DNA of 64,000 nucleotides, from positions 532-64,531 of the forward strand of contig CAYUSS010000004.1 in NCBI GenBank assembly GCA_964447515.1. The letters run 5' to 3'. Position 1 is the first letter of the stretch. Each line of letters starts with the position of its first letter. A model generated the notes under the pieces. It searched no databases, was not told where the DNA came from, and saw nothing but the letters and a program-made list of their open reading frames with translations. The DNA is from an uncultured Candidatus Saccharibacteria bacterium. GTDB taxonomy: Bacteria > Patescibacteriota > Minisyncoccia > Minisyncoccales > GWA2-38-27. Made by a program: the position numbers and the translations under genes. Below, piece after piece: positions 2,933 through 62,268 of this stretch.

Positions 2933-3144
2933 CGGTGGATTGAACAAATTACTGCTATGGCGCAACAGGAATGCACATCACCCATTTATGGGGGCTAATT
3001 CAAGACTTCTATGAACTCTCTTAATCTCTGCTACTTTCTCTTTCATCATCGCCATATACTCCCTATTCTCCAGAACTAAGATGAGTTTTTTAAAAATTGT
3101 TGAACGGGGGAGCCAATTTCATAATGTCATTAGAGAATTCAGGT

Positions 3145-3175
3145 AATCGCCTTTTGGGCGGTTTTTTGGTAGAAT
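3145..3175 (+). promoter_or_regulatory. terminator hairpin fused to extended -10 (TGGTAGAAT)
   Basis: AATCGCC-TTTT-GGGCGG hairpin and T-run, then TGGTAGAAT ending at 3175. Same module as 658-693, 50167-50198 and 62231-62261. Confidence 0.45.
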
Positions 3176-3224
3176 AAATTAGGAATTAAAGGTCGAAGAA
3201 CTAAAAATTAAATAATGTAAATTT

Positions 3225-7001: not shown

Positions 7002-7055
7002 TTAGCTTCAGAAAATCGCTAAGAAGTCGGTTTTTTGATAGAATTAAATAGAATT

Positions 7056-10503: not shown

Positions 10504-11395
10504 GATGTCCTCTTAAAAATTCATTTATCTCCATTGGTTTTTTACTCTCCATTTGGAGTTTTTCAATAATTAAATAGCCCTTTCCGCATTTAACTGCAAA
10601 TTTATCTTTAGGAAATTTTTCAACTGCCTCAGCTTCTATAATCTTTATTCTTTTTCCTTTCCAAAAAAAGAAGCTTCCGGGCCAAGGATAAAAAGCCCTA
10701 ATTTGTCTTTCAATTTCTTGGACTGGCTTTGACCGGTTAATTTTTCCATCCTCTTTTTTTATGATTTTTGTATAAGTTGCTTTGGATTCGTCTTGGGGTT
10801 GGGGCTTGATTTCGCTATTTATCCATTTGGGGATTGTTTTAACTAATAATTCAATACCTAATTCAGCTAATTTTTTACTTAATTTTTCGTAAGTAATTTT
10901 GGTTATTGGGATTTCCCATTCTCGCTGAGCGAGAATGGGTCCGTAGTCTATCTTCTCATCCATTAAAATTATTGTTAGACCTGTTTCTTTGTCGCCATTT
11001 AAAATAGTTGTTTGGATAGGAGAAGGGCCTCTATATTTTGGTAAAAGAGAAGGGTGAATGTTTAGGCAGCCAAATTTTGGGATTTCTAAAATTTCTTTTG
11101 GCAAGATTTGCCTGTAGGCAGCTAAAATTATTAAATCTGGTTTGATACTTGATACTTGATACTTGATATTTGATACTTTTATAGGTTGTAAGAAAGGAAT
11201 TTCATATTTTTCAGCAATAATCTTTACCGGCGGGGGAGATAAAACTTGCTTCCTGCCAGCCGGTTTATCGGGAGCGGTGATAACCAAAATAGGCCTATAA
11301 TTATTTTTAATAAGTCCTTCTAAAATAATCGCCCCGAATTTTGGGGTTCCTAAAAAGACAATTTTAGGTTTTGTTATTTTTTGTTCATTGTTCAT
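10481..11395 (-). CDS. fmt: methionyl-tRNA formyltransferase (carries an in-frame 35-nt heptamer array)
   Basis: IVFLGTP.FG, NIHPSLLPKYRGPSPIQ. Start chosen at the ATGA overlap with the upstream stop (11395). Heptamer array at 11144-11178 encodes IKYQVSSIK. Confidence 0.9.
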   Translation of the reverse strand: MNNEQKITKPKIVFLGTPKFGAIILEGLIKNNYRPILVITAPDKPAGRKQVLSPPPVKIIAEKYEIPFLQPIKVSNIKYQVSSIKPDLIILAAYRQILPKEILEIPKFGCLNIHPSLLPKYRGPSPIQTTILNGDKETGLTIILMDEKIDYGPILAQREWEIPITKITYEKLSKKLAELGIELLVKTIPKWINSEIKPQPQDESKATYTKIIKKEDGKINRSKPVQEIERQIRAFYPWPGSFFFWKGKRIKIIEAEAVEKFPKDKFAVKCGKGYLIIEKLQMESKKPMEINEFLRGHHDFNPLL

Positions 11396-13078: not shown

Positions 13079-13729
13079 TTATAATAATTTAAAGTTTACA
13101 ACTAAATATCCAACCCCGAAAGGACCTTGGTAAGATAAAATTTCTGGCAGCCAATTTATTCCCGCTTCTTCTAAAATTCCTAAAAGAAAAGAAAAAGAGC
13201 GCAAGCCGCATTCTCCAGCTTCTGGATACATTTCATCTAATTTTAGAAAATTTTCAATATCTTTTTCTTTTAAAAACTTAATCAGAGCTTGGTCAAATTT
13301 AGGGCCTTGAGGATTAAAACCGTAAGGACCATCTTCTTTTAAACAGTGGGAGAGATCGCCAGAAGCAATTAAGGCGTAGTTTAATTTACGAGACCCGACC
13401 TCGTAACGAGGTCGGGTCTCGTTTTTAAGTTTTTTGTAAACTTTTTTGCCTTTTTCAAAATAAGATTTTGGAGATTCTAATCCAGTTAAATACGTTTTTA
13501 TTTCTCCTTTAAAATCTTTTGCTAAAAAATAAAGAGGAACATTAAACCCCCAATCAAGATGAGGAGAAGAGATAATTATTGCGTCGGGATTTAGTTTCAT
13601 TAATTTTTCTCCCAAAAATTCCAGGCTTTTAATAGTTTTTTCAAGTTCCTCTCTATCTTTTTCTGAGCCGACTGAAGGTAAGAGGAGAGGGGGGTGAGGG
13701 GATATAGCTGCGAAAACAATTTTTGTCAT
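13079..13729 (-). CDS. class III extradiol dioxygenase-like (LigB/Memo-like) protein with an in-frame 35-nt perfect palindrome
   Basis: N-terminal ISPHPPLLLP and SGDLSH, with EAGECG near the C-terminus. The palindrome ACGAGACCCGACCTCGT-A-ACGAGGTCGGGTCTCGT at 13388-13422 encodes ..ETRPRYEVGSR.. Confidence 0.65.
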   Translation of the reverse strand: MTKIVFAAISPHPPLLLPSVGSEKDREELEKTIKSLEFLGEKLMKLNPDAIIISSPHLDWGFNVPLYFLAKDFKGEIKTYLTGLESPKSYFEKGKKVYKKLKNETRPRYEVGSRKLNYALIASGDLSHCLKEDGPYGFNPQGPKFDQALIKFLKEKDIENFLKLDEMYPEAGECGLRSFSFLLGILEEAGINWLPEILSYQGPFGVGYLVVNFKLL

Positions 13730-15414: not shown

Positions 15415-15427
15415 TTTAGATACTAAT

Positions 15428-15464
15428 ATTCAAGGTCGGGTGTTCAAGGTTGGGTCTTGAACAT
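15428..15464 (-). repeat. GTTCAAsACCCGACsTTGAAC repeat (inverted copy)
   Basis: ATTCAAGGTCGGGTGTTCAAGGTTGGGTCTTGAACAT is the reverse complement of the element found at 27875 and 31912. Confidence 0.7.
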
Positions 15465-15481
15465 ATAATTTTATTTTATTT

Positions 15482-16939
15482 ATGAAAATACATTTTATTG
15501 GAATTGGGGGTATAGGTGTTTCGGCTCTTGCTCAATATTATTTGGCAAAAGGTCATAAAGTCAGTGGTTCTGATTTAGTTTCATCTGAAACTACTGATTT
15601 TTTAAAGAAAAAAGGAGCTAAGCTTTTTATTGGAAATCATCAGGGAAAAAATCTGCCAAAAGATGTTGATTTAGTAATTTATAGTCCGGCAATTTCAGAA
15701 AGTAACCCCGAACTTCTAAAAGTTCGCAAGTTACAGGTTTTGAGTTACCCCCAGGCATTAGGAAAGCTAACAAAAGAATATTTTACAATCGCTGTTTCCG
15801 GAACTCACGGAAAGAGTACCACTACTGCAATGATTTCTTTGATTTTAATAAAGGCAGGGCTTGATCCTACGGTAATTATTGGCACTAAATTGAAAGAATT
15901 TGGTCAAACTAATTTTAGAATAGGAAAGAGTAAGTATCTTGTTATTGAGGCAGATGAATGGCAGGCCTCTTTTTTGAATTATTGGCCTCAGATTATTATT
16001 TTAACCAATATTGAAAGAGAACATTTGGATTACTATAAAAATTTAAATCATATTCTGAGAACTTACCAGAAATTTATCGGTCATTTGTCTAAAGATGGAG
16101 TATTAGTAGTGAATGGAGAAGACAAAAATATCTCAAAACTCAAATCGAAGCCTACGGCTCGTCTACGACAGCAGAACTCAAAACCACAACTCAAAACTCA
16201 AAACTATAGTTTAAAGCAAAAAGAGGCGGAGAAATTAAGGAAAATTTTGAAAGTGCCAGGCGAACATAATGTTTACAATGCCTTAGCTGCTTTGAGCGCG
16301 GCTCGGGCTTTGAAAATTCCAGATAAAATTTCATTTAAAGTGCTCTCAGAATATAAAGGCGCCTGGCGACGTTTTGAAATAGAAAAAGCAGAAATTAGCA
16401 ATAAGAACCTCTCGCTTCGCTCGAGAACCTTGAATGTTTTCCTCGCTATGCTCGGAAAGCCATTGTCTAAAAAGATTACCATTATTTCTGATTATGCTCA
16501 TCATCCAACCGAGATAGAAGCTACTTTAAGAGCTGTCAGAGAGAAATTTCTTTACCCGCCCAAATTTTCTGGAAGAAAATTTAGGCGGTCAGGTAAAAAA
16601 ATTTGGTGCATTTTTCAGCCTCATCAATATCAAAGAACATTTTATCTTTTTCAGGATTTTGTTAAAGTTTTTAGAAAAAACCCAATTGACAAATTGATTA
16701 TCACTGATATTTATGATGTAGCCGGCAGAGAAAAAAAGAAAACAAAAAAGAAAGTGAGTTCAAAAAAAATGGTTGAAGCAATTGACAGACCTCAAACAAT
16801 TTTTTTATCAAAAGAAAAAATAATAAATTATTTAAAAAGAAATTTAAAAGGCAGGGAAGTGGTAATAATTATGGGAGCAGGGGATATATACAAGTTGAGC
16901 GAGCGACTAGCAAGCGAAACCGAGCGCCCAAAGCATTGA
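15482..16939 (+). CDS. murC: UDP-N-acetylmuramate--L-alanine ligase, carrying three different repeat-derived in-frame inserts
   Basis: IHFIGIGGIGVSALA, GTHGKSTTT, DYAHHPTEI. Inserts at about 16138-16208, 16403-16433 and 16564-16599. Confidence 0.9.
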   Translation: MKIHFIGIGGIGVSALAQYYLAKGHKVSGSDLVSSETTDFLKKKGAKLFIGNHQGKNLPKDVDLVIYSPAISESNPELLKVRKLQVLSYPQALGKLTKEYFTIAVSGTHGKSTTTAMISLILIKAGLDPTVIIGTKLKEFGQTNFRIGKSKYLVIEADEWQASFLNYWPQIIILTNIEREHLDYYKNLNHILRTYQKFIGHLSKDGVLVVNGEDKNISKLKSKPTARLRQQNSKPQLKTQNYSLKQKEAEKLRKILKVPGEHNVYNALAALSAARALKIPDKISFKVLSEYKGAWRRFEIEKAEISNKNLSLRSRTLNVFLAMLGKPLSKKITIISDYAHHPTEIEATLRAVREKFLYPPKFSGRKFRRSGKKIWCIFQPHQYQRTFYLFQDFVKVFRKNPIDKLIITDIYDVAGREKKKTKKKVSSKKMVEAIDRPQTIFLSKEKIINYLKRNLKGREVVIIMGAGDIYKLSERLASETERPKH

Positions 16940-17086
16940 ACGCTCGTTCCTCACTCGCTGCCGCTCGCTTGGAGTTTTCCACTTAATAACTTGACAAAAA
17001 TTAAACAAAAAAGCGATAATGAAATAAGCCCGACAGACCGGGCTAGGTCGAGAGAAATAAAATATTAATAAAATTTAAAAAAATCT

Positions 17087-17239
17087 ATGACAACAACAAT
17101 TATTTGGATAGTGGTAGCAGTTGTAGCAGTCGGAATAATAATTTATCTTCTATCCGGGAAAAAAGGCAAGAAAGGGGGTCCTACCGCGCCGCCAACACCG
17201 CCAACACCGCCAACACCGCCAGAGGGTCCAACGATGTAA
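17087..17239 (+). CDS. small membrane protein, 50 aa, TM plus (PPT)n tail
   Basis: MTTTIIWIVVAVVAVGIIIYLLSGKKGKKGGPTAPPTPPTPPTPPEGPTM, followed by a strong terminator. Preferred over track ORF 17104..17286 in another frame. Confidence 0.45.
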   Translation: MTTTIIWIVVAVVAVGIIIYLLSGKKGKKGGPTAPPTPPTPPTPPEGPTM

Positions 17240-17299: not shown

Positions 17300-17424
17300 A
17301 GATAACCTTCCTCGTAGGCTTTTACTCTGTTATCAAATACAAAAGTTTGCTATTATGAATAAAAAAGAAATTGGAAATTGGGAAATCCTAATTTCAAGTT
17401 TTAAATTTCTAATTTCAAAAACGT

Positions 17425-24697: not shown

Positions 24698-26716
24698 ATG
24701 ATGATGAGAACAAAAATTTTCTTAATTTCTTTTATTTTAAGTTTAGCTTTCTGGTGGGGGATAAATAGTTTGGTAGAGAATTTAGAAGATTTTTTATTTT
24801 GGCAGGAAATATCTAAACAGCCGGGAATATTTACTGCCAAGGCAAGTCAACAAATTCCTAGAAACGAAGTAGAGAGATTAAGGTTTGAAAGACTACAAAC
24901 CGAATTAAAAAATTTAAAAATTGAGGCCAAAGCTGCAATTTCGGTTTTGATAAATGGTAATGGAGAGGAAAGAATTCTTTTTGGAAAAAATACTGACCAG
25001 AGATTATCAATTGCTAGTTTGACCAAATTAATGACCGCCCTTATTGTTCTGGAAAATTATGACCTTTCAAGAGAAATTACGATTTCTAAAGAAGCTATTA
25101 ACCAGCCGGGGGATTTTGGGAAATTAGAAGCAGGAAAGAATTTTCCGGTGAGATATTTACTTTATCCCTTATTAATAGAATCAAGCAATGATGCTGCTTT
25201 CTCTTTAGCCAATGATTACGAAGAGATGACAGAAGAAAAATTTGTTGAGTTGATGAATTTGGAAGCCCAAAAAATGAATCTGGAGAATACTTTTTTTGTT
25301 AATTCTACCGGTATTGACCCCAAGGAACCGGAAACCGAAATAAACAATGAGACGTTTAACGTCTCATGTGAGGGAAATTATTCAACTGCTGCTGATTTGG
25401 TTAAATTTACTAAAGAATTATTTAAAAAACCCTTAATTTGGGAAATTCTTTCTACCCCGGAATTTAATCTTTATGGACCAAAACTTATTAATACTAATGA
25501 GCTTTTAGAAGAATCTCTCGGTTGGTCGAACAGAATTATTGGAGGGAAAACCGGCGAAACCCCTCAAGCTAATGGTTGTTTTCTTTTAGTTCTTAAAACC
25601 CCTCAATCAGATTACTTAATAAATATAGTTTTGGGTTCAAACGACCGCTTTGGAGAAATGCGAAAATTATTAAATTGGCTGGAGAAAAAAGAAGAAGTAA
25701 ACCCCGTTAGAGATTCCGAGAGTAGAGAAGAAGCACAGAAAAAGGGTATCTCTAACGGGGCAAAAACTTTTGACCCGGCTTTATTGGAGTGGGAAGAGAT
25801 AACCTCTAATGCTCCCTGGTCTCCAAGAGACTCCCATGGTACTGTAGTTTTTCAAAATAAAATTTGGTTAATGGGAGGATTAAATGGAAATGGGTTTCAA
25901 GATAAAAATGGCAATGTTCCTTATTGGAGAGTACCTCATTATAGTGATGTTTGGTCTTCAAAAGACGGAAGAAATTGGCAGCTTGTTACTAAAAATGCTC
26001 CCTGGGGTAAAAAAAGGTCAATGCAAGCCATAGTTTTTAAAAATAAAATCTGGTTAATTGGGGGCTGGGGACCGGAAATTGGATATTCAAATGATATCTG
26101 GGTTACAGAAAATGGAATTGATTGGGAAAAGATAGAACCAAAAGGAGAATTACCGGCAGTGGAAGGAGACCAGTTAGTTGTTTTTGAAGACAAATTATGG
26201 TTAATTGGCGGAGTAAGATACGACGAAAGAAAGGAAAAAAATTATGTTTGGGTTTCTGAAGACGGCATTAATTGGACTGAAGCTACTGAAAGAGCGCCTT
26301 GGTCGCCGAGATGGGATCATACGGTAACCGTATTTAAAAATAAATTGTGGCTTATTGGCGGTATGAATTTAGAGGGAGAAATTTACCAGGATGTCTGGAG
26401 TTCTCAAGATGGGAAAAATTGGTTATTAGTTACCGATAATCCGCCTTGGCGGGGGAGACAAGGGCATGGCTCGGTAGTTTTTCAAAATAAAATTTGGATT
26501 ATTGGAAGACTTAATGGCAAAAGTACTGGTGGAGATAATGATGTTTGGTATTCAGAAGATGGTTATACTTGGGGAAAAACCCAAAAAAATGCTCCCTGGT
26601 TAGGCAGGGAAGATATTGGGGTTTTGGTCTTTAAAGATAAGATATGGGCATTAGGAGGAATGGATGGTAACTCGGAATGGAAAAATGATATTTGGTTTTC
26701 AATTTTCTCTCCTTAA
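24698..26716 (+). CDS. D-alanyl-D-alanine carboxypeptidase (S11) fused to a C-terminal Kelch-type beta-propeller
   Basis: SxxK SLTKLMT, SSND, and a KTG-like motif (GGKTGET). C-terminal half has about 6 repeats of W(S/G)PR..H..VVF.NK(I/L)WL(I/M)GG. The linker at 25701-25760 is a palindromic element. Confidence 0.75.
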   Translation: MMMRTKIFLISFILSLAFWWGINSLVENLEDFLFWQEISKQPGIFTAKASQQIPRNEVERLRFERLQTELKNLKIEAKAAISVLINGNGEERILFGKNTDQRLSIASLTKLMTALIVLENYDLSREITISKEAINQPGDFGKLEAGKNFPVRYLLYPLLIESSNDAAFSLANDYEEMTEEKFVELMNLEAQKMNLENTFFVNSTGIDPKEPETEINNETFNVSCEGNYSTAADLVKFTKELFKKPLIWEILSTPEFNLYGPKLINTNELLEESLGWSNRIIGGKTGETPQANGCFLLVLKTPQSDYLINIVLGSNDRFGEMRKLLNWLEKKEEVNPVRDSESREEAQKKGISNGAKTFDPALLEWEEITSNAPWSPRDSHGTVVFQNKIWLMGGLNGNGFQDKNGNVPYWRVPHYSDVWSSKDGRNWQLVTKNAPWGKKRSMQAIVFKNKIWLIGGWGPEIGYSNDIWVTENGIDWEKIEPKGELPAVEGDQLVVFEDKLWLIGGVRYDERKEKNYVWVSEDGINWTEATERAPWSPRWDHTVTVFKNKLWLIGGMNLEGEIYQDVWSSQDGKNWLLVTDNPPWRGRQGHGSVVFQNKIWIIGRLNGKSTGGDNDVWYSEDGYTWGKTQKNAPWLGREDIGVLVFKDKIWALGGMDGNSEWKNDIWFSIFSP

Positions 26717-26768: not shown

Positions 26769-27866
26769 ATGCCGGAAATTACCATAAATGTTATTAAAAT
26801 TTTTTTTCTGGGAGCAGTTGCTTTTATTTTAGCTTTTTGGTTAACTCCGATTTTAACCCATTTTTTATATAAACATAAACTCTGGCGTAAAGAAGTTAGA
26901 ACTAAATCAATAGATGGAAAAGAACTTCCTTTTTTTCAAAAATTTCATGGCAAAGGAGAAACTAATATCCCAAGGTTTGGAGGACTACTTATTTGGGGGA
27001 CTACTTTGATTTTAGCTATTTCTTTCTTTTTGCTTTCAAAGACTAATATCTGGTGGTTTCAAAGATTAAATTTTTTAAGCAGGTCCCAGACCTGGCTGCC
27101 TCTTTTTGCTTTGGTTATAGCTTCTTTGGTTGGATTATTAGATGATATTTTGCAAGTTTTTGGCTCGCCCTTCCAAGTTTTTTTTCGAAAAATTTGGGAG
27201 GGTAAAGGAAAATATATTGGCGGCGGCTTAAAATTAAGATATCGCCTAATTTTGGTTGCTTTAATTGGATTAATTGGTGGCTGGTGGTTTTATTTTAAAT
27301 TGGGCTATACTGCTATTCATATTCCAGCCAACGGCGACTTTTTAATTGGGGCTTGGTACATCCCTTTCTTTGTTCTGGTAATGCTCGCAACTTATAGCGG
27401 AGGAGTGATTGACGGCTTGGACGGCTTGGCTGGAGGGGCTTTTGCTTCAATTTTCGCTGCCTTTGCTGGAATTGCTTTATTCAAAGGACAAATTGATATC
27501 GCTGCTTTTTGTGTTGTAATTGTGGGAGCGATTTTGGCTTTTTTATGGTTTAATATCCCTCCAGCCAGATTTTATATGGGAGAAACAGGAATATTGGGAC
27601 TTTGCTGCGCTTTAACCGTAATAGCTTTTTTAACTAATTCTGTTTTGGTTTTGCCGATAATTGGGTTTTTATTGGTTATTGAATCTGGTTCAGTGATTCT
27701 TCAACTTCTTTCAAGAAAGATTCGTCATAAGAAACTTTTTCTGGCCGCTCCTATCCATCATCATTTTGAAGCCAAAGGCTGGCCTCATTATAAAATCACA
27801 ATGAGGTTTTGGGTTATCGGCGTTGTGATGGCGATAATAGGCGTTGCCATAAGATTATTAGGCTAA
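26769..27866 (+). CDS. mraY: phospho-N-acetylmuramoyl-pentapeptide transferase (carries an in-frame palindromic insert)
   Basis: Polytopic, with GLLDDILQVF and NIPPARFYMGETG. Insert at 27168-27202 encodes PFQVFFRKIWEG. Confidence 0.9.
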   Translation: MPEITINVIKIFFLGAVAFILAFWLTPILTHFLYKHKLWRKEVRTKSIDGKELPFFQKFHGKGETNIPRFGGLLIWGTTLILAISFFLLSKTNIWWFQRLNFLSRSQTWLPLFALVIASLVGLLDDILQVFGSPFQVFFRKIWEGKGKYIGGGLKLRYRLILVALIGLIGGWWFYFKLGYTAIHIPANGDFLIGAWYIPFFVLVMLATYSGGVIDGLDGLAGGAFASIFAAFAGIALFKGQIDIAAFCVVIVGAILAFLWFNIPPARFYMGETGILGLCCALTVIAFLTNSVLVLPIIGFLLVIESGSVILQLLSRKIRHKKLFLAAPIHHHFEAKGWPHYKITMRFWVIGVVMAIIGVAIRLLG

Positions 27867-27874
27867 TAATAATT

Positions 27875-27948
27875 ATGTTCAACACCCGACGTTGAACACC
27901 CGACCTTAAACACTTAAAAACGGCTCACTGCGTAGCGAGCCGTTTTGT
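27875..27948 (+). repeat. GTTCAAsACCCGACsTTGAACACCCGACCTTAAACA repeat plus terminator hairpin module (after mraY)
   Basis: ATGTTCAACACCCGACGTTGAACACCCGACCTTAAACA, then AAAAACGGCTCACT-GCGT-AGCGAGCCGTTTTG. The same module lies at 31912-31982. Confidence 0.75.
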
Positions 27949-28011: not shown

Positions 28012-29373
28012 ATGAAATTGTTCAAAGATAAAAAAGTAACCGTAATGGGACTGGGATTGCACGGCGGTGGAGCAGGAGTGGCTAAATTTTTCTCTAAGCA
28101 AGGGGCAAAAGTTTTAGTAACCGACCTTAAGACAAAAAAGCAATTAAGAGAATCTCTCCAGAAACTCAAAGACCTGCCTATAAAATTTGTCTTAGGCGGG
28201 CACCGAGAAGAGGATTTCATCAATACCGATTTAATTATTAAAAATCCGGCTGTTCCCAGCAACTCCCCTTATCTTAAAATTGCCAGAAAGCATGATATTC
28301 TTATAAAAACTGATGTCAGTATATTTTTTGACCTATGCCCAGCCCCAATTATCGGAGTTACCGGCACTAAAGGAAAATCAACTGTTGCCTTTCTTATCTA
28401 TCTTTTTTTAACAAGCAAATATCCAGATACAATTCTGGCCGGAAACATTGGCCTATCCCCCTTAGAAGTTTTTTCTAAAATTCAAAAATTTGGCAGCAGG
28501 GGCAAAGTGGTTTTAGAACTTTCCAGTTTTGAACTTGAAGATTTAAAAAAGAGTCCAAAAGTAGCTGTAATTACTACTATTTTTCCAGACCATTTAGACA
28601 GGTATAAGAATTTTAAAGATTATATCAGAGCAAAAAAATCAATTTTCAAATATCAGAACGAAAATGATATTTTGGTTTTAAATTATGGTAATCCTGAAGC
28701 ACGAAAGCTTGCCTCAGAGACTCGCTCCAAAGTTTATTTCTTTACCCCGTTAAATAGTTGCAAAGCAAATTTAACGGGGTTTAAGGATTCCAATGTTTCA
28801 GCTGCTCTTGCTGTTGCTAAAATTTTCAAAATTCCTAAAAAAAATATTGGAAAGGTTCTTTCTAATTTCAAAGGCCTTCCTCATAGGCAAGAACTAATTG
28901 CTACCAAGAAAGGAAAGAAATATATTAACGATGCCACCGCTACCACCCCTCAATCAGTGATATTAGCAATAAATACATTTAAAAAGAGGTTTCCTGGTTC
29001 TAAAATTATTCTTATTGCTGGCGGTTTGGATAAAAATTTAAAGTATAAAGGTCTAGCCGAAGAGATTCAAAAAAAAATAGATTGTCTTATTCTTTTGCCA
29101 GGTACTGCTTCTGATAAAATTAGAAAAGAGTTAAAGAGTTTTACCCCGTTAGAGATTACGGGAAAGGAAAGAAAACACAGATTACACAAATCTCTAACGG
29201 GGTTTAAAATATATCCTGTTAATTCAATGAATCAAGCAGTAAAAAAGGGTTCAAATTTAGCTAAAAAAGGTGACCTTGTTTTGCTTTCTCCTGGAGCCGC
29301 GAGTTTCAACTTATTTAAAAATGAATTTGATAGGGGAGAGCAATTTCTCAAAGCAGTAAAAAAACTCAAATAG
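28012..29373 (+). CDS. murD: UDP-N-acetylmuramoylalanine--D-glutamate ligase (two in-frame palindromic inserts)
   Basis: VMGLGLHGGG, GVTGTKGKST, GLPHRQE, NDATATTP. Inserts at 28744-28780 and 29153-29213. Confidence 0.9.
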   Translation: MKLFKDKKVTVMGLGLHGGGAGVAKFFSKQGAKVLVTDLKTKKQLRESLQKLKDLPIKFVLGGHREEDFINTDLIIKNPAVPSNSPYLKIARKHDILIKTDVSIFFDLCPAPIIGVTGTKGKSTVAFLIYLFLTSKYPDTILAGNIGLSPLEVFSKIQKFGSRGKVVLELSSFELEDLKKSPKVAVITTIFPDHLDRYKNFKDYIRAKKSIFKYQNENDILVLNYGNPEARKLASETRSKVYFFTPLNSCKANLTGFKDSNVSAALAVAKIFKIPKKNIGKVLSNFKGLPHRQELIATKKGKKYINDATATTPQSVILAINTFKKRFPGSKIILIAGGLDKNLKYKGLAEEIQKKIDCLILLPGTASDKIRKELKSFTPLEITGKERKHRLHKSLTGFKIYPVNSMNQAVKKGSNLAKKGDLVLLSPGAASFNLFKNEFDRGEQFLKAVKKLK

Positions 29374-31911: not shown

Positions 31912-32014
31912 ATGTTCAAGACCCGACCTTGAACACCCGACCTTAAACAGTAAAAACGGCTCGCTCTCGTGAGCCGTTTTGCCTGTCCCGCACCGAGCGA
32001 AGCTCGGTGCGGGG
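31912..32014 (+). repeat. GTTCAAsACCCGAC repeat plus two terminator-like hairpins (after murG)
   Basis: ATGTTCAAGACCCGACCTTGAACACCCGACCTTAAACA, then AAAAACGGCTCGCT-CTCG-TGAGCCGTTTTG, then CCCGCACCGAGC-GAA-GCTCGGTGCGGG. Confidence 0.75.
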
Positions 32015-36132: not shown

Positions 36133-37634
36133 AAATATTTATTGCTGTTTTTTGGTTTTTTATTTTCATAAAATTGCTCTTTTTTTGGGTCTGGCTTTGG
36201 CAATTAAAAGAATATCGTTTAGGAAGATTCAGGGCCCACTTTGGAACTCAAAAAATAAAAAAAATAATTTTTAGTTTACATGGTATTAGATATCCTAAAT
36301 TGACCCAAAAGACCTTTATTATTTTGGTCTCTGGCATATTGATTGGATTTTTAATTTTGTTTGAGCTTTTTTCTTTACCCTCCCAAGTTTTGTTTAGCAA
36401 AATTTGGGATGGTAAACCAGAATATTTGTTTTATCTTTTGCTTCTGATTTTAATTATTTTAGCTCCAATAATTTTTTCTCTTTTAGTTTTATTTTTTCAA
36501 ATCCCTGCCTCTATTTTAATAAAGAGAATTTTAGAAAAAGCAAAAGAAAAAAGAGAAGAATTTAAAGACCTTTTAGTTATTGGCATTACCGGGAGTTATG
36601 GTAAAACTTCAACTAAAGAATTTTTAGCCACTATTTTAGAAGAAAAGTTCAAAATTCTCAAAACCCCTGAACACCAGAATACTGATCCAGGAATTGCTCG
36701 ATGTGTTTTAGATAACTTAACTTCCGAGCATCAAATTTTTATAGTGGAAATGGCTGCCTATAAATTAGGGGAAATAAAGCCACCCTGCCGGATGGTTCAA
36801 CCTAAAATTGGCATTTTAACCGGTATAAATGAGCAACATCTGGCAACCTTTGGTTCCCGGGAAAATATTATTGATACGAAATTTGAGCTGATAGAGAGTT
36901 TGCCCGAAAACGGAATTGCGATTTTTAATGGCAATAATAAGTATTGTTTTGAACTTTACAAAAAAGCCAAAACAACCAGAAAGCCAGATAACATTTTTCT
37001 GACCACGACCGGAAAAATGTTATCAACAGATATATGGGCAGAAGATATTAAAGTTGAAAAAGAATTTATTTCCTTTAAAGTTAATTCTGAGGGCGGAGAT
37101 TCGGCCAATTTTAGAGTAAATTTATTAGGCAGGCAAAATATTGAAAATATTTTGTTAGCTGTTTGCTGCGCCAAAGAATTAGGAATGAGATTAGAAGAGA
37201 TTGCCGCAGCTTGCCGGAAAATCAGACCAAAACAAGGAACAGCCCAGCTTAAAAAATCTAAGCAGAATTTAAATATTATTGATGCTACTTATTCGGCAAA
37301 CCCTGATGGAGTGATTGCTGATTTGGAACATCTAAAAAATTGGGAAGGCAAAAAAGCAATTGTAATGCCCTGTTTAATTGAGTTGGGAAAAGCCGGTCCA
37401 GAGATTCACAAAAAAATCGGCAAAAAAATCGGCCAGGTTTGCGATTTAGCCCTAATCACTACTAGAGATTACTTTCAAGAAATAAAAAAAGGAGCAATTG
37501 AAACTGGACTAAAGGGAAAAAATATTTTGTTTATTAAAAACCCAAAAGAAATTATTGAAAAATTAAATATTTTTGGCGGAGAGAATGATATAGTGCTCTT
37601 AGAGAGTAGAGTGCCAAAACAATTAATAAAATGA
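36129..37634 (+). CDS. murF: MurF-like Mur ligase (UDP-MurNAc-tripeptide--D-Ala-D-Ala ligase) with an N-terminal membrane domain of about 130 aa
   Basis: GITGSYGKTSTKE P-loop and the general Mur ligase layout. The N-terminus has about 4 TM helices and contains the palindromic insert at 36377-36413. Confidence 0.7.
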   Translation: MKIFIAVFWFFIFIKLLFFWVWLWQLKEYRLGRFRAHFGTQKIKKIIFSLHGIRYPKLTQKTFIILVSGILIGFLILFELFSLPSQVLFSKIWDGKPEYLFYLLLLILIILAPIIFSLLVLFFQIPASILIKRILEKAKEKREEFKDLLVIGITGSYGKTSTKEFLATILEEKFKILKTPEHQNTDPGIARCVLDNLTSEHQIFIVEMAAYKLGEIKPPCRMVQPKIGILTGINEQHLATFGSRENIIDTKFELIESLPENGIAIFNGNNKYCFELYKKAKTTRKPDNIFLTTTGKMLSTDIWAEDIKVEKEFISFKVNSEGGDSANFRVNLLGRQNIENILLAVCCAKELGMRLEEIAAACRKIRPKQGTAQLKKSKQNLNIIDATYSANPDGVIADLEHLKNWEGKKAIVMPCLIELGKAGPEIHKKIGKKIGQVCDLALITTRDYFQEIKKGAIETGLKGKNILFIKNPKEIIEKLNIFGGENDIVLLESRVPKQLIK

Positions 37635-38927: not shown

Positions 38928-39977
38928 ATGGAAATAAAAGAAATAAATAATAAAGAGGTTTGGGAGAATTTTCTTTTGGAATCTCAAGAGAAAACTTTTT
39001 TAGATTCTTGGAATTGGGGTCAGTTTCAGAAAATGATGGGTAATAAAATTTGGCGATTCGGTGTGTTTGAGAGCGACCAACTGATTTCAGTAGCTTTAGT
39101 GATAAAAATCAGAGCCAAAAGAGGGACTTTTTTGTTTGTGCCTCACGGACCAGTAGTAAAGTATCAAGTATCAAGTATCAAGTATCAAGTATTGGAAACA
39201 TTATTAGGGGAAGTTAGAAAAACAGCTAAAAGCGAAAAAGCGGGTTTCCTAAGGATTGCACCGATTTGGAGAAGAAATAGAGAAGATATTATTTTTTTTA
39301 AAAAACTTGGTTTTAAAAATGCCCCTATTCATATCCATCCAGAAGTAACCTGGGAATTGAATATCACTCCCTCAGAAGAAGAGCTTTTAATGAATATGCG
39401 AAAAACCACTCGCTATTTAATAAGGCAGGGGCTTAAAAACAAAGCTCTTGAAATTGTCAAAAGCCAGAATATTGAGGACCTGAAAATTTTTAATGAAATT
39501 TATCAAGAGACAGCTGCTCGCCATAGTTTTGTTCCATTTTCTTTAGAATATTTAAGAAATCAATTTTCGGCCTTTAATCCTTCTCAACAAATATCTATTT
39601 TTTTGGCTAAGTATAAAGAGAAAGTTATTTCTGGGGCAATTATTGTTTTTTGGCAAAACATTGCTTTTTATCATCACAGTGCTTCATTATCAAAGTATGG
39701 GAAAATCCCGGTTTCTTATCTTTTACAATGGGAGATAATAAAAGAGGCAAAAAGACGGGGTTGTAGTCGCTATAATTTCTGGGGAATAGCTCCGGAGGTC
39801 AGAGATAAATCTCAACTATCAAAGTCAAAGCATCCCTGGGTAGGTTTAACCTTATTTAAAATGGGCTTTGGCGGCTGTAGGAAAGAATATATTAAGACCC
39901 AGGATTTGCCCTTTTCCTTATTTTACTGGCTGACTTACATTTTTGAAAAATTGAGAAAAATTAAAAGAGGATTGTGA
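38928..39977 (+). CDS. FemAB-family peptidoglycan bridge-forming peptidyltransferase (carries an in-frame 35-nt heptamer array)
   Basis: FLDSWNWGQFQ N-terminus and the two-GNAT-like length typical of FemX/MurM proteins. Array 39160-39194 encodes KYQVSSIKYQV. Confidence 0.7.
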   Translation: MEIKEINNKEVWENFLLESQEKTFLDSWNWGQFQKMMGNKIWRFGVFESDQLISVALVIKIRAKRGTFLFVPHGPVVKYQVSSIKYQVLETLLGEVRKTAKSEKAGFLRIAPIWRRNREDIIFFKKLGFKNAPIHIHPEVTWELNITPSEEELLMNMRKTTRYLIRQGLKNKALEIVKSQNIEDLKIFNEIYQETAARHSFVPFSLEYLRNQFSAFNPSQQISIFLAKYKEKVISGAIIVFWQNIAFYHHSASLSKYGKIPVSYLLQWEIIKEAKRRGCSRYNFWGIAPEVRDKSQLSKSKHPWVGLTLFKMGFGGCRKEYIKTQDLPFSLFYWLTYIFEKLRKIKRGL

Positions 39978-42810: not shown

Positions 42811-44406
42811 TTATAATTTATTTATTTTATAGAAATGAATCCCATTTTTTTCCTGGACTTCCCCGGAAGAGAACTCCTGGAAGAGTTTAGAAAATAAATC
42901 CTTGTCGTATTGCAGAGGGACGATAACTGTCTCTTTATTTATTTTAATCTGGTTTATATTTTCTGGCAATAAATAAATAGCTTGTGGCTCTGGATATTTT
43001 GTTCTTTCAATGAACATTGTAGTTTGGGCCGGCATTGGAATGCCGTTCGGCCAGGGTACAGGGACTCCTGATTGATTTACAATTACATATTTTTGAACAT
43101 CGTCGGGCAAAGAATTTAGGTATTTTCCAATGGCGACATAGTTTTCAGCGAAGGCTCCTTTCAATTCCGGTCTTTTAGCCCATTGGAAAAAGTATTTATC
43201 AAATTGAGCGTAAGCGATAGATAAAAGAATAATTGATAGACACAAATAAAGCGCGATTGTCTGATATTTCGTTTTAAAAAATCTTTTTATTTTTTTATAT
43301 AGCCAGAAAGCCCCAAAAGCGGCAAAAATATAGACGGACGGGATTACCCCAATAACTCGCAGTGAATGAGGAATTCCCTCATAGCTTAAAACTCCAGGTA
43401 AAAGCATTATGAGAAACCATGAAATTAAAAACCCAAAGGGAAAAAATTCCGAAAGTATACTTCTATGTAATAGTATGCTTTTATAATTACGATAAAGAGA
43501 GTAGATAAAACCAATTAGAAAAAATATTCCGATTGGCCAAAGAAGTTGGGGAGAGCCGGAAAAATTATGACGCCAGTTTCCGTCGCCGTAAAAATTAAAC
43601 ATCCCTAAGTGGAGAATGAGCGATTTACCTAAATTATAAATTGGATTTCCTTGGGAAAGAATTGACACTCCGGCTGCCCGTCCAAAAAATTGGGCGGGGT
43701 TTTCAAGAAAATAAATTCCAATTGGAAGAGCGACAATAAAAATAGTAAGCAGTAAGTATAAAGTATAACATATAAAAGTTTTTTGCTGTTTTTGTTTTTT
43801 ATAAATTAGCCACCAGCTTATTAAAGCTATTATTAGTAATAAGACTACAAATCTATAAGCAATATAAGTATAAAATCCAAGCCCTAAAAATAATCCGGAA
43901 ATTAGTAAATTTAAATACTTCTTAAGACGAAATCCTTTAAATAAAAAATAAAAACCAAAAGTTAAGAGGAAAGGGACTAAAATTGCCCGAAATTCAATTC
44001 GTGAAAAATTTACATGCCAAAAAGAAACAGCCAAGAAAAAAGAAGAGAGTAGAGCGATGTATTTAGTATTTAGTATTTTGTATTTAGTATTTTGGAAGAT
44101 TTCCTGAGTTAATAGATATAACCCCAAAACCGTTAGAATTCCAATTATTGCTGGGACAATTCTTATTGAGAAAATACTTACCCCGAAAATAGAAAAAGAT
44201 AAAGCGATTAAGTTAATAAAAAGACCTTCTCGGCCATTGTTTTCAGGATAAAAAACCATGCCTGGACCAGAAATCGCTTCATTTCCATTAATTGCCTCAT
44301 CAGGATAAAGCCCCGGAGGAATATTATTCAATTGCCACAATCTAAAGAAACAAGCAATTCCCAAAACAATCAATAAGATTATTAAAATCTTATATTTTTT
44401 ATTCAT
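42811..44406 (-). CDS. GT39/ArnT-like glycosyltransferase (carries an in-frame 35-nt heptamer array)
   Basis: 531 aa, polytopic, with loop motif PDEAINGNEA. Array 44058-44092 encodes NTKYKILNTKY. Confidence 0.7.
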   Translation of the reverse strand: MNKKYKILIILLIVLGIACFFRLWQLNNIPPGLYPDEAINGNEAISGPGMVFYPENNGREGLFINLIALSFSIFGVSIFSIRIVPAIIGILTVLGLYLLTQEIFQNTKYKILNTKYIALLSSFFLAVSFWHVNFSRIEFRAILVPFLLTFGFYFLFKGFRLKKYLNLLISGLFLGLGFYTYIAYRFVVLLLIIALISWWLIYKKQKQQKTFICYTLYLLLTIFIVALPIGIYFLENPAQFFGRAAGVSILSQGNPIYNLGKSLILHLGMFNFYGDGNWRHNFSGSPQLLWPIGIFFLIGFIYSLYRNYKSILLHRSILSEFFPFGFLISWFLIMLLPGVLSYEGIPHSLRVIGVIPSVYIFAAFGAFWLYKKIKRFFKTKYQTIALYLCLSIILLSIAYAQFDKYFFQWAKRPELKGAFAENYVAIGKYLNSLPDDVQKYVIVNQSGVPVPWPNGIPMPAQTTMFIERTKYPEPQAIYLLPENINQIKINKETVIVPLQYDKDLFSKLFQEFSSGEVQEKNGIHFYKINKL

Positions 44407-46936: not shown

Positions 46937-47123
46937 ATGGAAATTAGACGTATAGAAAATAGAAATTGGTAATGGAAAACAAAGGAGGGCATCTGGATAT
47001 CGGGAGATCCGGGACTAGGAAATCAGGTTATCAGGAGATCCGGAGAAAATTAGTTCCTGATATCCGGATTCCCGGATATCCTTTTCCATTTTCCAATTTC
47101 CATTACCAATTTCTAATTTCCAT
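46937..47123. repeat. long imperfect inverted repeat of about 190 nt filling the dnaK-dnaJ spacer
   Basis: The left arm ATGGAAATTAG...AAATTGGTAATGGAAA...GGATATCGGGAGATCCGG pairs with the right arm CCGGATTCCCGGATATCC...TTTCCATTACCAATTTCTAATTTCCAT. Confidence 0.7.
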
Positions 47124-48355: not shown

Positions 48356-48429
48356 GCCCCCATAGCTCAACTAGGTAGAGCAGGATCCTTTTAAGATCAA
48401 GGTTCTCCGTTCGATTCGGAGTGGGGGCA
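48356..48429 (+). tRNA. tRNA-Lys (anticodon UUU)
   Basis: Manual cloverleaf: acceptor GCCCCCA/TGGGGGC, D arm GCTC..GAGC, anticodon arm GGATC-CTTTTAA-GATCA, T arm CTCCG-TTCGATT-CGGAG. No encoded CCA. Confidence 0.9.
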
Positions 48430-48437
48430 CTATTAAT

Positions 48438-49265
48438 ATGACAGATCCATTATTAGTAGAAAAATGCAGGAAATTGAGAAAAAAAGGATTTACTCTTGGA
48501 AAAATTATTAAAGCTACTGGTCTTCCAAAAACTACAGTTTATGAGCATATTTGTGATATTCCACTTTCTAAAGAAATGAGGGAAAGAATAAGAAAAGAGG
48601 CAAGAGAAAAAATCAATGAATTTATTAAAAAATATAGAAAAGGAAAATGTATTCCTGGAAGAATAGTGCCCAAGCCAAAAGGATGAACAAATGAATTAAT
48701 ATTTCTTACAGCTCATTTTATGTTTGATGGAGAAATTAGATATGGTAGTTGCGTTTATCAAAATAGAAATATTGCTCTGGTTAATAAAGTAAAGGATTTG
48801 ATGCAAAAGATTTTTAATTTAAAACCTTATAATAAATTTTACGAAGAAACTGGAGTTCACCGAATTTCTTTTCACTATGTTGAGCTTGCCGATTATTTTA
48901 GAGAAAAAGTTAAAGAACTTAAAAAATATATCACGAATAGTTCTTTGTTAGAAAAGAAAATATTTCTTCAAGTGTTTTTTGATGATGAGGGATGTGCCTA
49001 TATCTATATTCGTGGCAATAATAGAAAGATAAGGGGATACCAACACAATTTGGAAACTTTAAGACTAATTCAAGCAATATTACAGGATTTTGATATAAAA
49101 AGCAGGATTGAAGAAAAAGGGCAAGAAGTTGTTATAAGTGGTAAACCAAACCTCATAAAATTTCGTGATAAAATTAATTTTTCAAAAGGCATTTTCATAA
49201 ATCCTGAACGTAAGAACAGTATCTGGAAGAAAAAATTAGAAAAAGAGAAATTCTTCAAAAAATAA
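48438..49265 (+). pseudogene. HTH plus LAGLIDADG homing endonuclease, single reading frame interrupted by one in-frame TGA (48684-48686)
   Basis: Track ORFs 48438..48686 and 48720..49265 share a frame with no other stop between them. Motifs are LTAHFMFDGEI and LQVFFDDEGCA (two LAGLIDADG-like helices), with an N-terminal HTH FTLGKIIKATGLPKTTVYEHI. Starts 8 nt after tRNA-Lys. Confidence 0.65.
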
Positions 49266-50161: not shown

Positions 50162-50166
50162 CAAAA

Positions 50167-50198
50167 GAATCGCCAAAACGGCGATTTTTTGGTAGAAT
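50167..50198 (+). promoter_or_regulatory. terminator hairpin fused to extended -10 (TGGTAGAAT), 6 nt before the maf ATG
   Basis: GAATCGCC-AAAAC-GGCGATT plus a T-run, TGGTAGAAT at 50190-50198, ATG at 50205. Confidence 0.55.
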
Positions 50199-50204
50199 GA
50201 ATAT

Positions 50205-50824: not shown

Positions 50825-52024
50825 ATGTCTTCTGTCAAAAATAAATTTTTCTTAGTTATTATTTTTTTAATTATCTTTGGGGTTGGTTTTTGGGTTGGAG
50901 AAACCTCGGTGGTCTGTGATGTTTGTCCCCCCGAAGATATTAATTTTTCTCTTTTCTGGGAGGCCTGGGACAAGCTTCAAGAAAGATATGTAAACCCTGA
51001 AGATTTTGACGTTCAAGGGATGATTTATGGAGCAATTTCCGGAATGGTGAAATCCATGGAAGACCCTTATACTGTATTTTTTAATCCCCAGAACACTAAA
51101 AAATTTTTGGAAGATGTAAGCGGAAAATTTGAAGGAGTGGGAATGGAAATTGGCATAAGGAAAGGCCAACTTCAGGTTATTGCTCCTTTAGAGGGTACGC
51201 CAGCCCAGAGAGCCGGTTTGCGGCCTGGTGATAAAATTCTAAAAATAGACGATGTCTTGACTGCGGATATTGCTATTGAAGAAGCAGTAACTCTTATCCG
51301 GGGTTCCAAGGGAACAGAAGTAACCTTAACTATTTTTCGAGATGAGTGGAAAAATACAAGAGAATTTAAAATCAAAAGAGCGGTTATTAAAGTTCCTTCT
51401 TTAAAATGGGAATTACTTGACTCGACCGGTCAAGCCGATGAGAAAGGCAATATCGCTTATATAAAAATTTATCAGTTTGCCGAGAAACTAAATTCTGATT
51501 TTACAAAAGCGGCAATTGAAATTTTAAACAGCCCAGCTAAAAAAATAATTTTAGATTTAAGAAATAATCCCGGAGGTTATTTAATAAGAGCCCAAGACAT
51601 TGCCGGTTGGTTTTTAGAAAGAGGGAAAGTTGTGGTTATTGAGGATTTTGGTTCCGAAAGGGAGCAAGAGGTTTACAAAACTAAGGGTAATGCTGAATTT
51701 TCAGGTTATCCAATGGTAATTCTGATTAATCAAGGGTCAGCATCAGCTTCTGAAATTTTAGCCAGCGCTCTCCGTGATAATCGCGGTATAAAAATAATCG
51801 GAGAGACCTCTTTTGGAAAGGGCTCTGTCCAAGAATTAGAAAATTTAACTGACGGCTCCAGTTTAAAAATTACCATAGCAAAGTGGTTAACCCCTAATGA
51901 AGAATTTATTACTGGACTAGGATTAAAGCCAGATATTGAAATAAAAACGACAGAAGAGGATTATCAGGAGGAGAGAGATCCTCAACTGGATAAAGCTATT
52001 GAGATAATTCGGGAAATGGAGTAA
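50825..52024 (+). CDS. S41 carboxy-terminal processing peptidase with PDZ domain
   Basis: N-terminal anchor, PDZ (GLRPGDKILKIDD), catalytic region GSASASEI...FGKGSVQ. Confidence 0.85.
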   Translation: MSSVKNKFFLVIIFLIIFGVGFWVGETSVVCDVCPPEDINFSLFWEAWDKLQERYVNPEDFDVQGMIYGAISGMVKSMEDPYTVFFNPQNTKKFLEDVSGKFEGVGMEIGIRKGQLQVIAPLEGTPAQRAGLRPGDKILKIDDVLTADIAIEEAVTLIRGSKGTEVTLTIFRDEWKNTREFKIKRAVIKVPSLKWELLDSTGQADEKGNIAYIKIYQFAEKLNSDFTKAAIEILNSPAKKIILDLRNNPGGYLIRAQDIAGWFLERGKVVVIEDFGSEREQEVYKTKGNAEFSGYPMVILINQGSASASEILASALRDNRGIKIIGETSFGKGSVQELENLTDGSSLKITIAKWLTPNEEFITGLGLKPDIEIKTTEEDYQEERDPQLDKAIEIIREME

Positions 52025-52145
52025 AATAAAGTAATATCAAAAATCAAAATACAAAAATTTTGAAATTTGTTAATTCTAATTTTTAATATGTAATTTTGCT
52101 GTCGTAGACGACCCGTAGGGTCCTATTTGATATTTGATTTTTATT

Positions 52146-52595
52146 ATGAGAGTTATTCTTCTTCAGGATATAGAAAATATAGGAAAGAAATATGAAATTA
52201 AGGAGGTCAAAGACGGCTATGCCCAGAATTTTTTGATTCCTAAAAGATTAGTTAAACCGGCAACGAAAGAAGCTTTAAAATGGTTAGAAACCCAAAAAGA
52301 AATTAGAGAAAAGAAAGCCGAAAAAGAGCTGAAAGAAGCTCAGAAAATAGTTTCAGAGATTGATGGAGTAGAAATAGTGATTCCAGTTAAAATTGGCGAA
52401 AAAGAACAGTTCTTTGAAAAAATAAATTCCCAAAAAATTTCTGAGAAATTAAAAGAAAAAGGATTTGAAATTAAAAAAAGCCAAATTGGTTTGGAGCAAC
52501 CCATTGAGGAACTCGGTGAGTTTCCGATAAAGGTCAAATTTGAACATAATTTAGAAGCGGAAATAAGAGTAATAGTTACAGAAGAAAAAAAGTAA
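52146..52595 (+). CDS. rplI: 50S ribosomal protein L9
   Basis: MRVILLQDIENIGKKYEIKEVKDGYAQNFLIP is the canonical L9 N-domain. Start at ATG 52146. Confidence 0.9.
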   Translation: MRVILLQDIENIGKKYEIKEVKDGYAQNFLIPKRLVKPATKEALKWLETQKEIREKKAEKELKEAQKIVSEIDGVEIVIPVKIGEKEQFFEKINSQKISEKLKEKGFEIKKSQIGLEQPIEELGEFPIKVKFEHNLEAEIRVIVTEEKK

Positions 52596-57559: not shown

Positions 57560-57580
57560 GAACTGAAGAAAGATTGAAAT

Positions 57581-57621
57581 AAGAACCTCTCGCTTCGCTC
57601 GAGAACCTTGATTCGCTAAGG
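57581..57621 (+). repeat. AAGAACC-hairpin-GAACCTTGATTCGCYAAGG element
   Basis: AAGAACCTCTCGCTTCGCTCGAGAACCTTGATTCGCTAAGG. Its first 31 nt are identical to the copy inside murC (16403-16433). Confidence 0.8.
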
Positions 57622-62261: not shown

Positions 62262-62268
62262 GGAATAT

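Follow-up and report, generated by a model that had tools for sequence, protein, structure and literature searches.

The stretch of DNA analysed here, hereafter the window, comprises 64,000 nucleotides (nt) of contig CAYUSS010000004.1 from an uncultured Candidatus Saccharibacteria bacterium and has a G+C content of about 34%. It includes murC, the gene for UDP-N-acetylmuramate--L-alanine ligase, as a single intact open reading frame (ORF). A first inspection of the sequence (the original prediction) had described murC as a hotspot carrying three unrelated repeat-derived inserts in one essential gene. The sequences quoted there are present in one open frame, and murC does contain three in-frame segments from three different dispersed-repeat families, each with a second copy in the window where 0.00 would be expected by chance. 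The extents of all three segments are revised below, as is the status of murC as a special target. The principal features of the gene are the following (aa, amino acids).

15482–16939, forward strand: murC, single intact ORF, 485 aa
16134–16205, forward strand: coding region of variable loop A, with 7-nt repeats around insert 1 (Tandem Repeats Finder: AACTCAA x4.6 at 16175–16205)
16151–16174, forward strand: insert 1, GC-rich core CCTACGGCTCGTCTACGACAGCAG, 24 nt, aa 224–231, PTARLRQQ
16406–16471, forward strand: insert 2, 66 nt, aa 309–330, NLSLRSRTLNVFLAMLGKPLSK, two related units of about 33 nt
16550–16588, forward strand: insert 3, 39 nt, aa 357–369, LYPPKFSGRKFRR, within a 47-nt hairpin at 16551–16597

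The product is a three-domain Mur ligase, with Pfam matches to Mur_ligase (PF01225), Mur_ligase_M (PF08245) and Mur_ligase_C (PF02875). MurC chains rank at the top of a PDB search (E-values down to 2.6e-71), and the closest sequences in the database are MurC from members of the Patescibacteria (Nealsonbacteria, Staskawiczbacteria, Paceibacter and similar groups), each at most about 68% identical. The conserved MurC signatures (P-loop, DxxHHP and QPHxYxRT) are present and the invariant columns of an 83-sequence alignment are all kept (G107-H109-G110-K111-S112-T113, D337-Y338-H340-H341-P342 and Q379-P380-H381). Structure prediction with the inserts in place, which had been proposed with the original prediction, was carried out with AlphaFold2 using this alignment as input. 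It gives a confident MurC fold with the inserts in low-confidence loops: the mean predicted local distance difference test (pLDDT) value is 85.3, the predicted template modelling (pTM) score is 0.85, and template modelling (TM) scores against the H. influenzae, Yersinia pestis and E. coli enzymes are 0.80–0.84. The pLDDT falls below 50 only at residues 225–234, 361–363, 366–368 and the last five (481–485); block means are 58–68 over residues ~311–330, inside insert 2, and the remaining dips are mild. All three inserts fall between well-predicted secondary-structure elements, at sites that correspond in the Mur ligase fold to a peripheral loop of the middle domain, the β-hairpin that opens domain 3 and a helix-to-strand loop of domain 3. 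The model supports, without proving, a functional enzyme with three added surface loops, and the intact ORF, invariant residues and loop positions together suggest that catalytic activity is kept despite the inserts.

The source is metagenome-assembled sequence, in which repeats can give chimeric joins, and an assembly or sequencing artefact, or else a decaying pseudogene, might be suspected. We consider this barely credible. Between 2.7 and 5.7 kb of DNA, inserts included, is identical across contigs of three separate Joint Genome Institute (JGI) metagenomes (samples 3300031553, 3300031554 and 3300031864), so the inserts are not an accident of assembly, and independent genomes carry related inserts. 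The intact frame, the retained invariant residues and the confident fold argue against a pseudogene.

The boundaries of the inserts were defined by comparison with orthologues. The best 120 MurC matches were aligned and loop regions were extracted from 80 genome loci and 10 further contigs; chance expectations for second copies were obtained from dinucleotide shuffles of the window. Relative to the roughly 200 orthologues thus covered, the extra segments are present but with corrected boundaries. The inserts are free of stop codons, the ORF stays open through all three, and the conceptual translation across their junctions includes ...EKFLYPPKFSGR, NLSLR and ...PTAR. The canonical RRF–DDY spacing given with the original prediction is roughly correct (16 residues in A. 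baumannii MurC against 36 in the query). The copies found elsewhere in the window are as follows.

27154–27210, reverse strand: insert-3 family copy in mraY, peptide VFGSPFQVFFRKIWEGKGKY
36367–36425, forward strand: insert-3 family copy in murF, peptide SLPSQVLFSKIWDGKPEY, hairpin of −23.4 kcal/mol, z −5.75
52098–52119, reverse strand: intergenic twin of the insert-1 core, between a Peptidase_S41 gene (50825–52024) and rplI (52134–52595)
57578–57611, forward strand: intergenic twin of the first unit of insert 2, preceded by a small acidic ORF and followed by a terminator-like hairpin (57647–57681)

For the first segment, initially placed at 16138–16208, only the 24-nt core is extra, both with respect to the 120-protein alignment and to orthologues of the 48-aa type (L087, L085, L011, L004). 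The AACTCAA heptamers, originally counted as part of the insert, are the usual loop of the clade: relatives build a loop A of the same length class from other heptamers (AAGTCAA in L085, AACAAAA in L024). Period-7 runs of at least 10 occur in 6 of 43 loop-A segments, where no other period reaches that length, and are absent from a control stretch of the gene; in loop B, the site of the second segment, period 7 is the sole long-run period except for one period-8 run. In some relatives 7-nt arrays substitute for MurC loops with length unchanged, for example GGAAATT x4 in L018 and L019. The core sequence CCTACGGNTCGTCTACGACAGC occurs at 16151–16172 and on the reverse strand at 52098–52119 (chance expectation 0.00), the latter bordered by 7-nt arrays at 52036–52058, 52064–52097 and 52124–52142, and related CCCTACGGGG cores occupy the same loop A in L003 and L009. 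A longer, 71-nt match between the segment and 52067–52137 was rejected as a repeat, its 72% complementarity being mostly AT-rich heptamer flank; the secure repeat is the 22–24-nt core only. Insert 1 folds no better than shuffled sequence (z −0.07).

The second segment, marked at 16403–16433, is repeat-derived as proposed but the true insert is twice that length. Between GxWRRF and DYAHHP the query has 50 aa against a mode of 28 aa among 86 loci, which gives an insert of 66 nt, and L001 retains the uninterrupted site (AGCAATAAG followed directly by AAAATT). Both of its units contain CTCGCTNNGCTCG, with five matches in the window against 0.13 expected. By direct reading, positions 16400–16433 and 57578–57611 are 100% identical over 34 nt, and within them the 29-nt AAGAACC element at 16403–16431 recurs at 57581–57609 (chance expectation 0.00). 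No other sequence of the 120-protein alignment carries insert 2; L021 holds a similar but diverged unit. The second unit, insert 2b (TTTTCCTCGCTATGCTCGGAAAG), has no second copy in ~2 Mb. The fold of insert 2 is not significant (z −0.56).

The third segment is indeed a palindromic insert, with boundaries different from the 16564–16599 first given. From DYAHHP to FQPH the query has 45 aa, and about 75 of 80 relatives have 31–33 aa, nearly always 32, hence an insert of 39 nt. Its hairpin (−17.6 kcal/mol) is significantly stable (z −3.4). The sequence CTTTACCCKCCCAARTTTT is found at 16550, at 27189 on the reverse strand and at 36373 (chance expectation 0.00), that is in murC, mraY and murF, and the mraY and murF copies are read in other frames than that in murC. 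The MraY of L084 has the same element as the query mraY at the same position. The possibility that native murC sequence forms the hairpin loop, with arms added around it, was dropped because the same loop, TTTTCCAAAGGAAAA, recurs in copies inside other genes.

These comparisons bear on whether the segments could have arisen within murC itself, by 7-nt slippage and quasi-palindrome template switching, the twins being copies of murC sequence or convergent. Loops A and B of many orthologues are built of tandem 7-nt repeats, as slippage would predict, and the murC-type palindrome has a centre similar to the empty insert-3 site (AAATTTCCAAGGAAAAAAAT). However, the insert-3 family keeps a 45-nt consensus across dozens of unrelated genes and organisms, the insert-2 twin lies as a 34-nt perfect match within unrelated intergenic sequence, and CCCTACGGG cores reappear with different flanks. 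A local origin thus seems improbable for the inserts as a whole, and slippage probably accounts for the heptamer part of segment 1 only.

The sites themselves are used repeatedly. Internal inserts of at least 6 aa are absent from 71 of the 120 closest orthologues and present in the other 49 (one in 29, two in 10, three in 6 including the query, and four in 4), with the query in the upper tail. They concentrate at few sites, the three of the query among them: L009 is filled at all three loops and L035 at two, while the insert-3 site holds at least four different palindromes across lineages (the PPKF type, the ACCCCGTTAGAAATC type in L091, that of L009 and a GC-rich one in L057). On sequence comparison, the MurC of this clade offers a small number of permissive loops, which different elements hit repeatedly in different lineages.

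Insert 3 is carried by 12 distinct murC sequences, in all of which the peptide LYPPKFS(K/G)xK(L/F)RR is conserved. The carriers are not monophyletic in a neighbour-joining tree and core identity is no higher between carriers (70.2%) than between carriers and non-carriers (70.1%). One carrier (P0014) and one non-carrier (P0101) are 86% identical in protein and 85% in nt sequence and differ by a clean 39-nt gap; a second filled/empty pair (82% nt identity) shows a clean 36-nt gap. Neither pair has a target-site duplication, the ambiguity being at most 1 nt. This patchiness, with a non-carrier so close to a carrier, implies that the insert was either gained more than once at one site or precisely lost more than once, and a single ancestral insert 3 was rejected as the sole explanation on the same grounds.

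The conserved peptide, together with the basic and, in the model, surface-exposed character of the inserts, could be taken to mean that the extra loops are adaptive and lineage-specific, serving for instance as a docking surface for the divisome or other Mur enzymes. We judge this very unlikely. The patchy distribution already largely refutes it, the same site holds different elements in different lineages, and the insert DNA is also present in non-coding sequence and in unrelated genes, where other frames give other peptides. Nor are the segments conserved at the protein level in relatives lacking the nucleotide repeats: the insert-1 core and insert 2 are confined to the query genome and absent from the ~200 orthologues, and insert 3 is found only in relatives that keep the nucleotide palindrome.

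Insertion of this type is not specific to murC. A metagenome scan for CTTTACCCKCCMAAATTTT found at least 118 loci, and the figures for the insert-3 family given here and below hold among the matches listed. There are 54 full palindromes of 33–40 nt (one of 50 nt) in 98 unique contexts with enough flank, with the consensus CTTTACCC-K-CC-M-AAATTTT / loop / AAAAYTTRGG-M-GGGCGAGC (~45 nt). Solo elements number 47 unique copies, 25 of them in ORFs of at least 200 aa, where they use at least five of the six frames. Besides MurC and MraY, the hosts include RecJ, FolD, an RF-1/2-type release factor, UvrB, GatB, AspRS, MnmA, a radical-SAM gene (two copies) and a ParA-like ATPase, and in metagenomes the family is in frame in at least 10 housekeeping gene families other than murC. 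Many copies are set in 7-nt arrays. Several insertion points adjoin native sequence resembling the element ends, as at the FolD LPLP motif (CCTTTACCC) and the AspRS HHPFT motif, and inserts 1 and 2 share a few left-flank bases with their window twins. No match to the insert-3 arm or to the insert-2 unit was found in the viral contigs scanned. The window itself contains further palindromes within genes as well as tandem arrays.

13388–13422, reverse strand: perfect 15–16-bp GC-rich hairpin ACGAGACCCGACCTCG..., −31.4 kcal/mol, z −8.5, in a LigB-family ORF (13079–13729)
25692–25760: palindrome in a gene of the penicillin-binding protein (PBP)/Kelch type
28735–28785 and 29134–29202: palindromes of the TTTACCCCGTTA family in murD, encoding peptides such as FTPLNSCKANLTGFK
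36987–37024: palindrome in murF, 15-bp stem
54672–54717: third palindrome of the TTTACCCCGTTA family
11142–11178: 7-nt tandem array in fmt
39159–39192: 7-nt tandem array in a femAB-like gene
44059–44092: 7-nt tandem array in a PMT-like gene
17367–17419, 47083–47122 and 52036–52142: intergenic 7-nt tandem arrays

The three palindromes beginning TTTACCCCGTTA are related, and murD with two has as many clear palindromes as murC. With similar palindromes in frame in mraY, murD, murF, the LigB-family gene and the PBP/Kelch gene, the phenomenon is genome-wide, and a special murC hotspot as originally proposed finds no support. The LigB-family hairpin and intergenic repeats have the motif CCCGACCT in common. 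The fmt and femAB-like arrays use the same heptamer, GATACTT, in opposite orientation and are 97% complementary over 35 nt; 7-nt arrays often border GC-rich hairpins.

The stability of some of these hairpins could mean that they are kept for a role as nucleic acid (in RNA processing, stability or pausing, or as a site of DNA binding or cleavage), coding being incidental. The insert-3 hairpin is strong, and the hairpins related to it in murF, murD and the LigB-family gene exceed it (z −4.8 to −8.5). Among 10 distinct murC-borne copies 91% of stem cells pair and two pairs are changed on both sides (CCCGCC/GGCGGG to CCCTCC/GGAGGG), a pairing score reached by only 2 of 500 shuffles, and the arms also form a covarying stem in the conserved intergenic element described below. 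The paired changes are, however, also compatible with separate insertions of palindromic G- and T-subfamilies, both of which are present elsewhere. Moreover, inserts 1 and 2 fold no better than shuffles, no U-tract for termination accompanies the insert hairpins, most orthologues (71 of 120) carry no insert, and position, orientation and frame are free among host genes. A nucleic-acid role is therefore unlikely, though less so than the other alternatives considered.

The reading we prefer, with a probability of about 0.72, is that of a working murC, in a Patescibacteria genome of Paceibacteria/Nealsonbacteria-like type, with a hairpin across its stop codon and with three in-frame inserts (24, 66 and 39 nt) drawn from three dispersed-repeat families, which are also spread through the intergenic DNA, and tolerated as selfish or neutral passengers. 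The inserts would most likely be translated into surface loops of 8, 22 and 13 residues at structurally permissive points, which the enzyme tolerates; in an essential gene only copies that are stop-free, a multiple of three in length and located in loops would survive selection. The gene may be seen as one instance of a clade-wide colonisation of coding sequence by short palindromes and 7-nt arrays. Spread probably occurs by copy-paste, through template switching or by means of a nuclease or recombinase specific for hairpins, rather than by classical cut-and-paste transposition; we favour copy-paste because the indels are clean, without target-site duplication, and because of the short left-junction identities. 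The end-like flanks and these identities hint at a homology-assisted copy mechanism.

Several points weigh against this reading. Translation of the inserts, their harmlessness and their route of spread are steps that we infer from sequence. No transposase, REP-associated tyrosine transposase (RAYT) or GIY-YIG gene was detected in the 64-kb window by regular expression or by Pfam on 30 ORFs; the only candidate nuclease there is the LAGLIDADG-like ORF listed below. Inserts 1 and 2 have two copies each in 64 kb, to which ~2 Mb of related loci add one diverged unit (L021), and the term family therefore rests for them on few copies; lacking significant hairpins, they are not palindromic elements in the strict sense. 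With a star-like MurC tree, the case for independent gains relies mainly on the two close filled/empty pairs. Finally, the two compensatory pairs in the murC hairpin could mean selection on structure and not neutrality.

In about one quarter of the CTTTACCCKCCMAAATTTT matches the two arms belong to a larger conserved element of ~160–430 nt, as one of its stems. This element occupies exactly the gap from one gene's stop codon to the ATG of the next gene, often in ribosomal-protein operons (loci L104, L108, L111, L112, L131, L135, L149, L154, L164, L170, L177, L184, L199, L202 and L205; examples are L135:460–960 and the minus strand of L199, element start ~1175). Its layout is TAA-AGGGCTTTGTC / hairpin / ...AAAAC-CTTTACCCGCCAAAATTTT / variable loop / AAAAYTTAGGCGGGTGCTCA-ATGTTGT / hairpin / ACAACATTGGC-ATG, with the upstream stop codon in the 5′ helix and the 3′ helix extending to the downstream start codon. 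RNAalifold predicts 48 pairs from 11 copies, 27 with compensatory double changes. An ORF of at least 70 aa starts at the ATG of the element in 16 of 25 unique copies, and downstream genes include rpsH, rplF, rpsC, rpoA, efp, mreB and a secY-like gene; an rplT copy escaped the count only through the anchoring of the automated scan on an upstream ATG. At three distinct loci an ORF of ~85 aa for a GIY-YIG protein (PF01541, E ~1e-16) lies within the stem loop. Rfam, at gathering and E-value thresholds, reports only tRNAs and one tmRNA fragment on the element-bearing loci.

The element and the solo palindromes share the CTTTACCCGCC...GGCGGG hairpin. It is conceivable, if rather doubtful, that the ~45-nt palindromes in murC, mraY, murF and other genes of the Candidate Phyla Radiation (CPR) are solo copies of the stem of this cassette, mini-copies being seeded by the nuclease or by the hairpin. 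Neither the window nor 1.2 Mb of MurC-relative loci contains the long form, and its link to the query genome therefore rests only on similarity of the stem sequence. If the relationship were true, this would be a new kind of mobile element, with a GIY-YIG nuclease or a hairpin seeding coding sequences, and the structured GIY-YIG-bearing element, if confirmed, would represent a new RNA or mobile-element class.

Among known systems the closest parallels are Rickettsia palindromic elements (RPEs) and intragenic repetitive extragenic palindromic (REP) sequences. Ten RPE families of ~100–150 bp have been described (Ogata et al. 2000 Science 290:347; 2002 Genome Res 12:808; summarised in PMC10969869); nearly half are in frame in unrelated genes, where they are predicted to be structurally tolerated, and they have no associated transposase. 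The likeness lies in the reduced genome, the dispersed families, the in-frame inserts in housekeeping genes alongside intergenic copies, compatibility with the fold and the lack of an associated transposase. The query elements differ in being shorter (24–66 nt) and tied to 7-nt arrays, in that only one of the three murC inserts is a significant palindrome, and in belonging to the phylum Patescibacteria; no homology to RPEs is expected. In addition, RPEs have one conserved peptide frame whereas the insert-3 family uses at least five.

REP sequences tagged with GTAG/CGTC have been described inside uvrA, uvrB and recB (Di Nocera et al. 2013, PMC3733652). Like the elements described here these are stem-loops of 20–40 nt, single or dimeric, adding up to ~20–30 residues and sometimes occupying the same site in related species. 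The insert-3 family resembles them in size and multiplicity, as an imperfect palindrome of the 20–40-nt class in many copies. Its ends (CTTTACCC...GGGCGAG) nevertheless lack the GTAG/CGTC tag; the insert-1 core contains two CTAC motifs (GTAG on the opposite strand), neither of them at a clear stem foot. REP sequences are otherwise mostly intergenic, and the share of solo insert-3 copies in long ORFs (25 of 47) is far above what is usual for them. Pfam detects no RAYT (Y1/HUH transposase) among the 30 ORFs of the 64-kb window.

Other parallels are more distant. Transposable elements of the miniature inverted-repeat type (MITEs) with in-frame fusions (ERIC, RU-1/2/3, BOX; PMC2759123, PMC10969869) are likewise small non-autonomous repeats, some with open ORFs. 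The query elements are much shorter and have no known parent insertion sequence; inverted-repeat arms are present but the filled/empty pairs lack a target-site duplication. In the CPR, rRNA and tRNA genes carry insertions, some with homing-endonuclease genes (PMC11270868; PMC13011429), so that the same phylum tolerates intervening sequence in essential genes. Those insertions are long, lie in RNA genes and are removed from the transcript, whereas the present inserts are tiny, protein-coding and keep the frame, which suggests that they are translated, unlike the removed introns and intervening sequences. By analogy, selfish repeats of the RPE or intragenic REP kind in permissive loops are the best reading of the murC inserts.

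A full-text literature search combining CPR, Patescibacteria or Parcubacteria with palindromic, MITE or intragenic repeats returned no description of this phenomenon. To our knowledge, the spread of short repeats in frame into essential genes has been regarded as nearly unique to Rickettsia, with few REP cases elsewhere. Pervasive in-frame repeats in a second reduced-genome, host-dependent lineage would suggest that weak selection and small genomes let selfish DNA reshape protein loops. The inserts may also chart, in nature, the sites at which Mur ligases, themselves antibiotic targets, permit insertion. In CPR proteins, differences in length and unusual low-complexity loops may often be repeat-derived rather than functional, and palindromes of this kind can mislead gene calling, alignment and assembly.

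Other features were noted at the 3′ end of murC and elsewhere in the window.

16895–16972, forward strand: GC-rich imperfect hairpin over the murC stop codon (16937–16939), −33.3 kcal/mol, z −2.5
17099–17239, forward strand: small membrane-anchored ORF 3′ of murC, with CCGCCAACA x3.7 (PTPPTPPTPP)
48720–49262, forward strand: free-standing LAGLIDADG-like ORF, 181 aa, PF14528
511–650 and 1421–1589: two copies of a tRNA-like repeat of ~110–170 nt

The left arm of the stop-codon hairpin encodes the last ~14 murC codons, and the C-terminal tail of MurC varies among the orthologues of the 120-protein alignment. An ORF of 37–54 aa also lies 3′ of murC in relatives with fetched contigs. The LAGLIDADG-like ORF, the only candidate nuclease in the window, sits just 3′ of tRNA-Lys (48356–48430) and a small ORF. 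The tRNA-like repeats end in a T-arm and acceptor 3′ half (..TTCGAATCCAAGCCCCGGAGCCA); they are called neither by ARAGORN nor by Rfam, for which only two tRNAs in the window reach the gathering score, and might represent tRNA genes with introns or other unusual features, of the type found in Patescibacteria (PMC13011429).

Two further repeat families are present. The intergenic module ATGTTCAA(G/C)ACCCGAC(C/G)TTGAACACCCGACCTTAAACA occurs at 15424–15465 (reverse strand), 27874–27919 and 31912–31956, the copies being 89–91% identical; terminator-like hairpins AAAACGGCTC...GAGCCGTTTT come after it at two sites, and one copy lies directly 5′ of murC. A six-copy family (654–693, 1632–1671, 3141–3180, 7010–7049, 50164–50203 and 62227–62266) consists of the hairpin AATCGCC-NNNN-GGCGATT followed by TTTTTG(A/G)TA(T/G)AAT, and resembles a terminator fused to a −10-like box.

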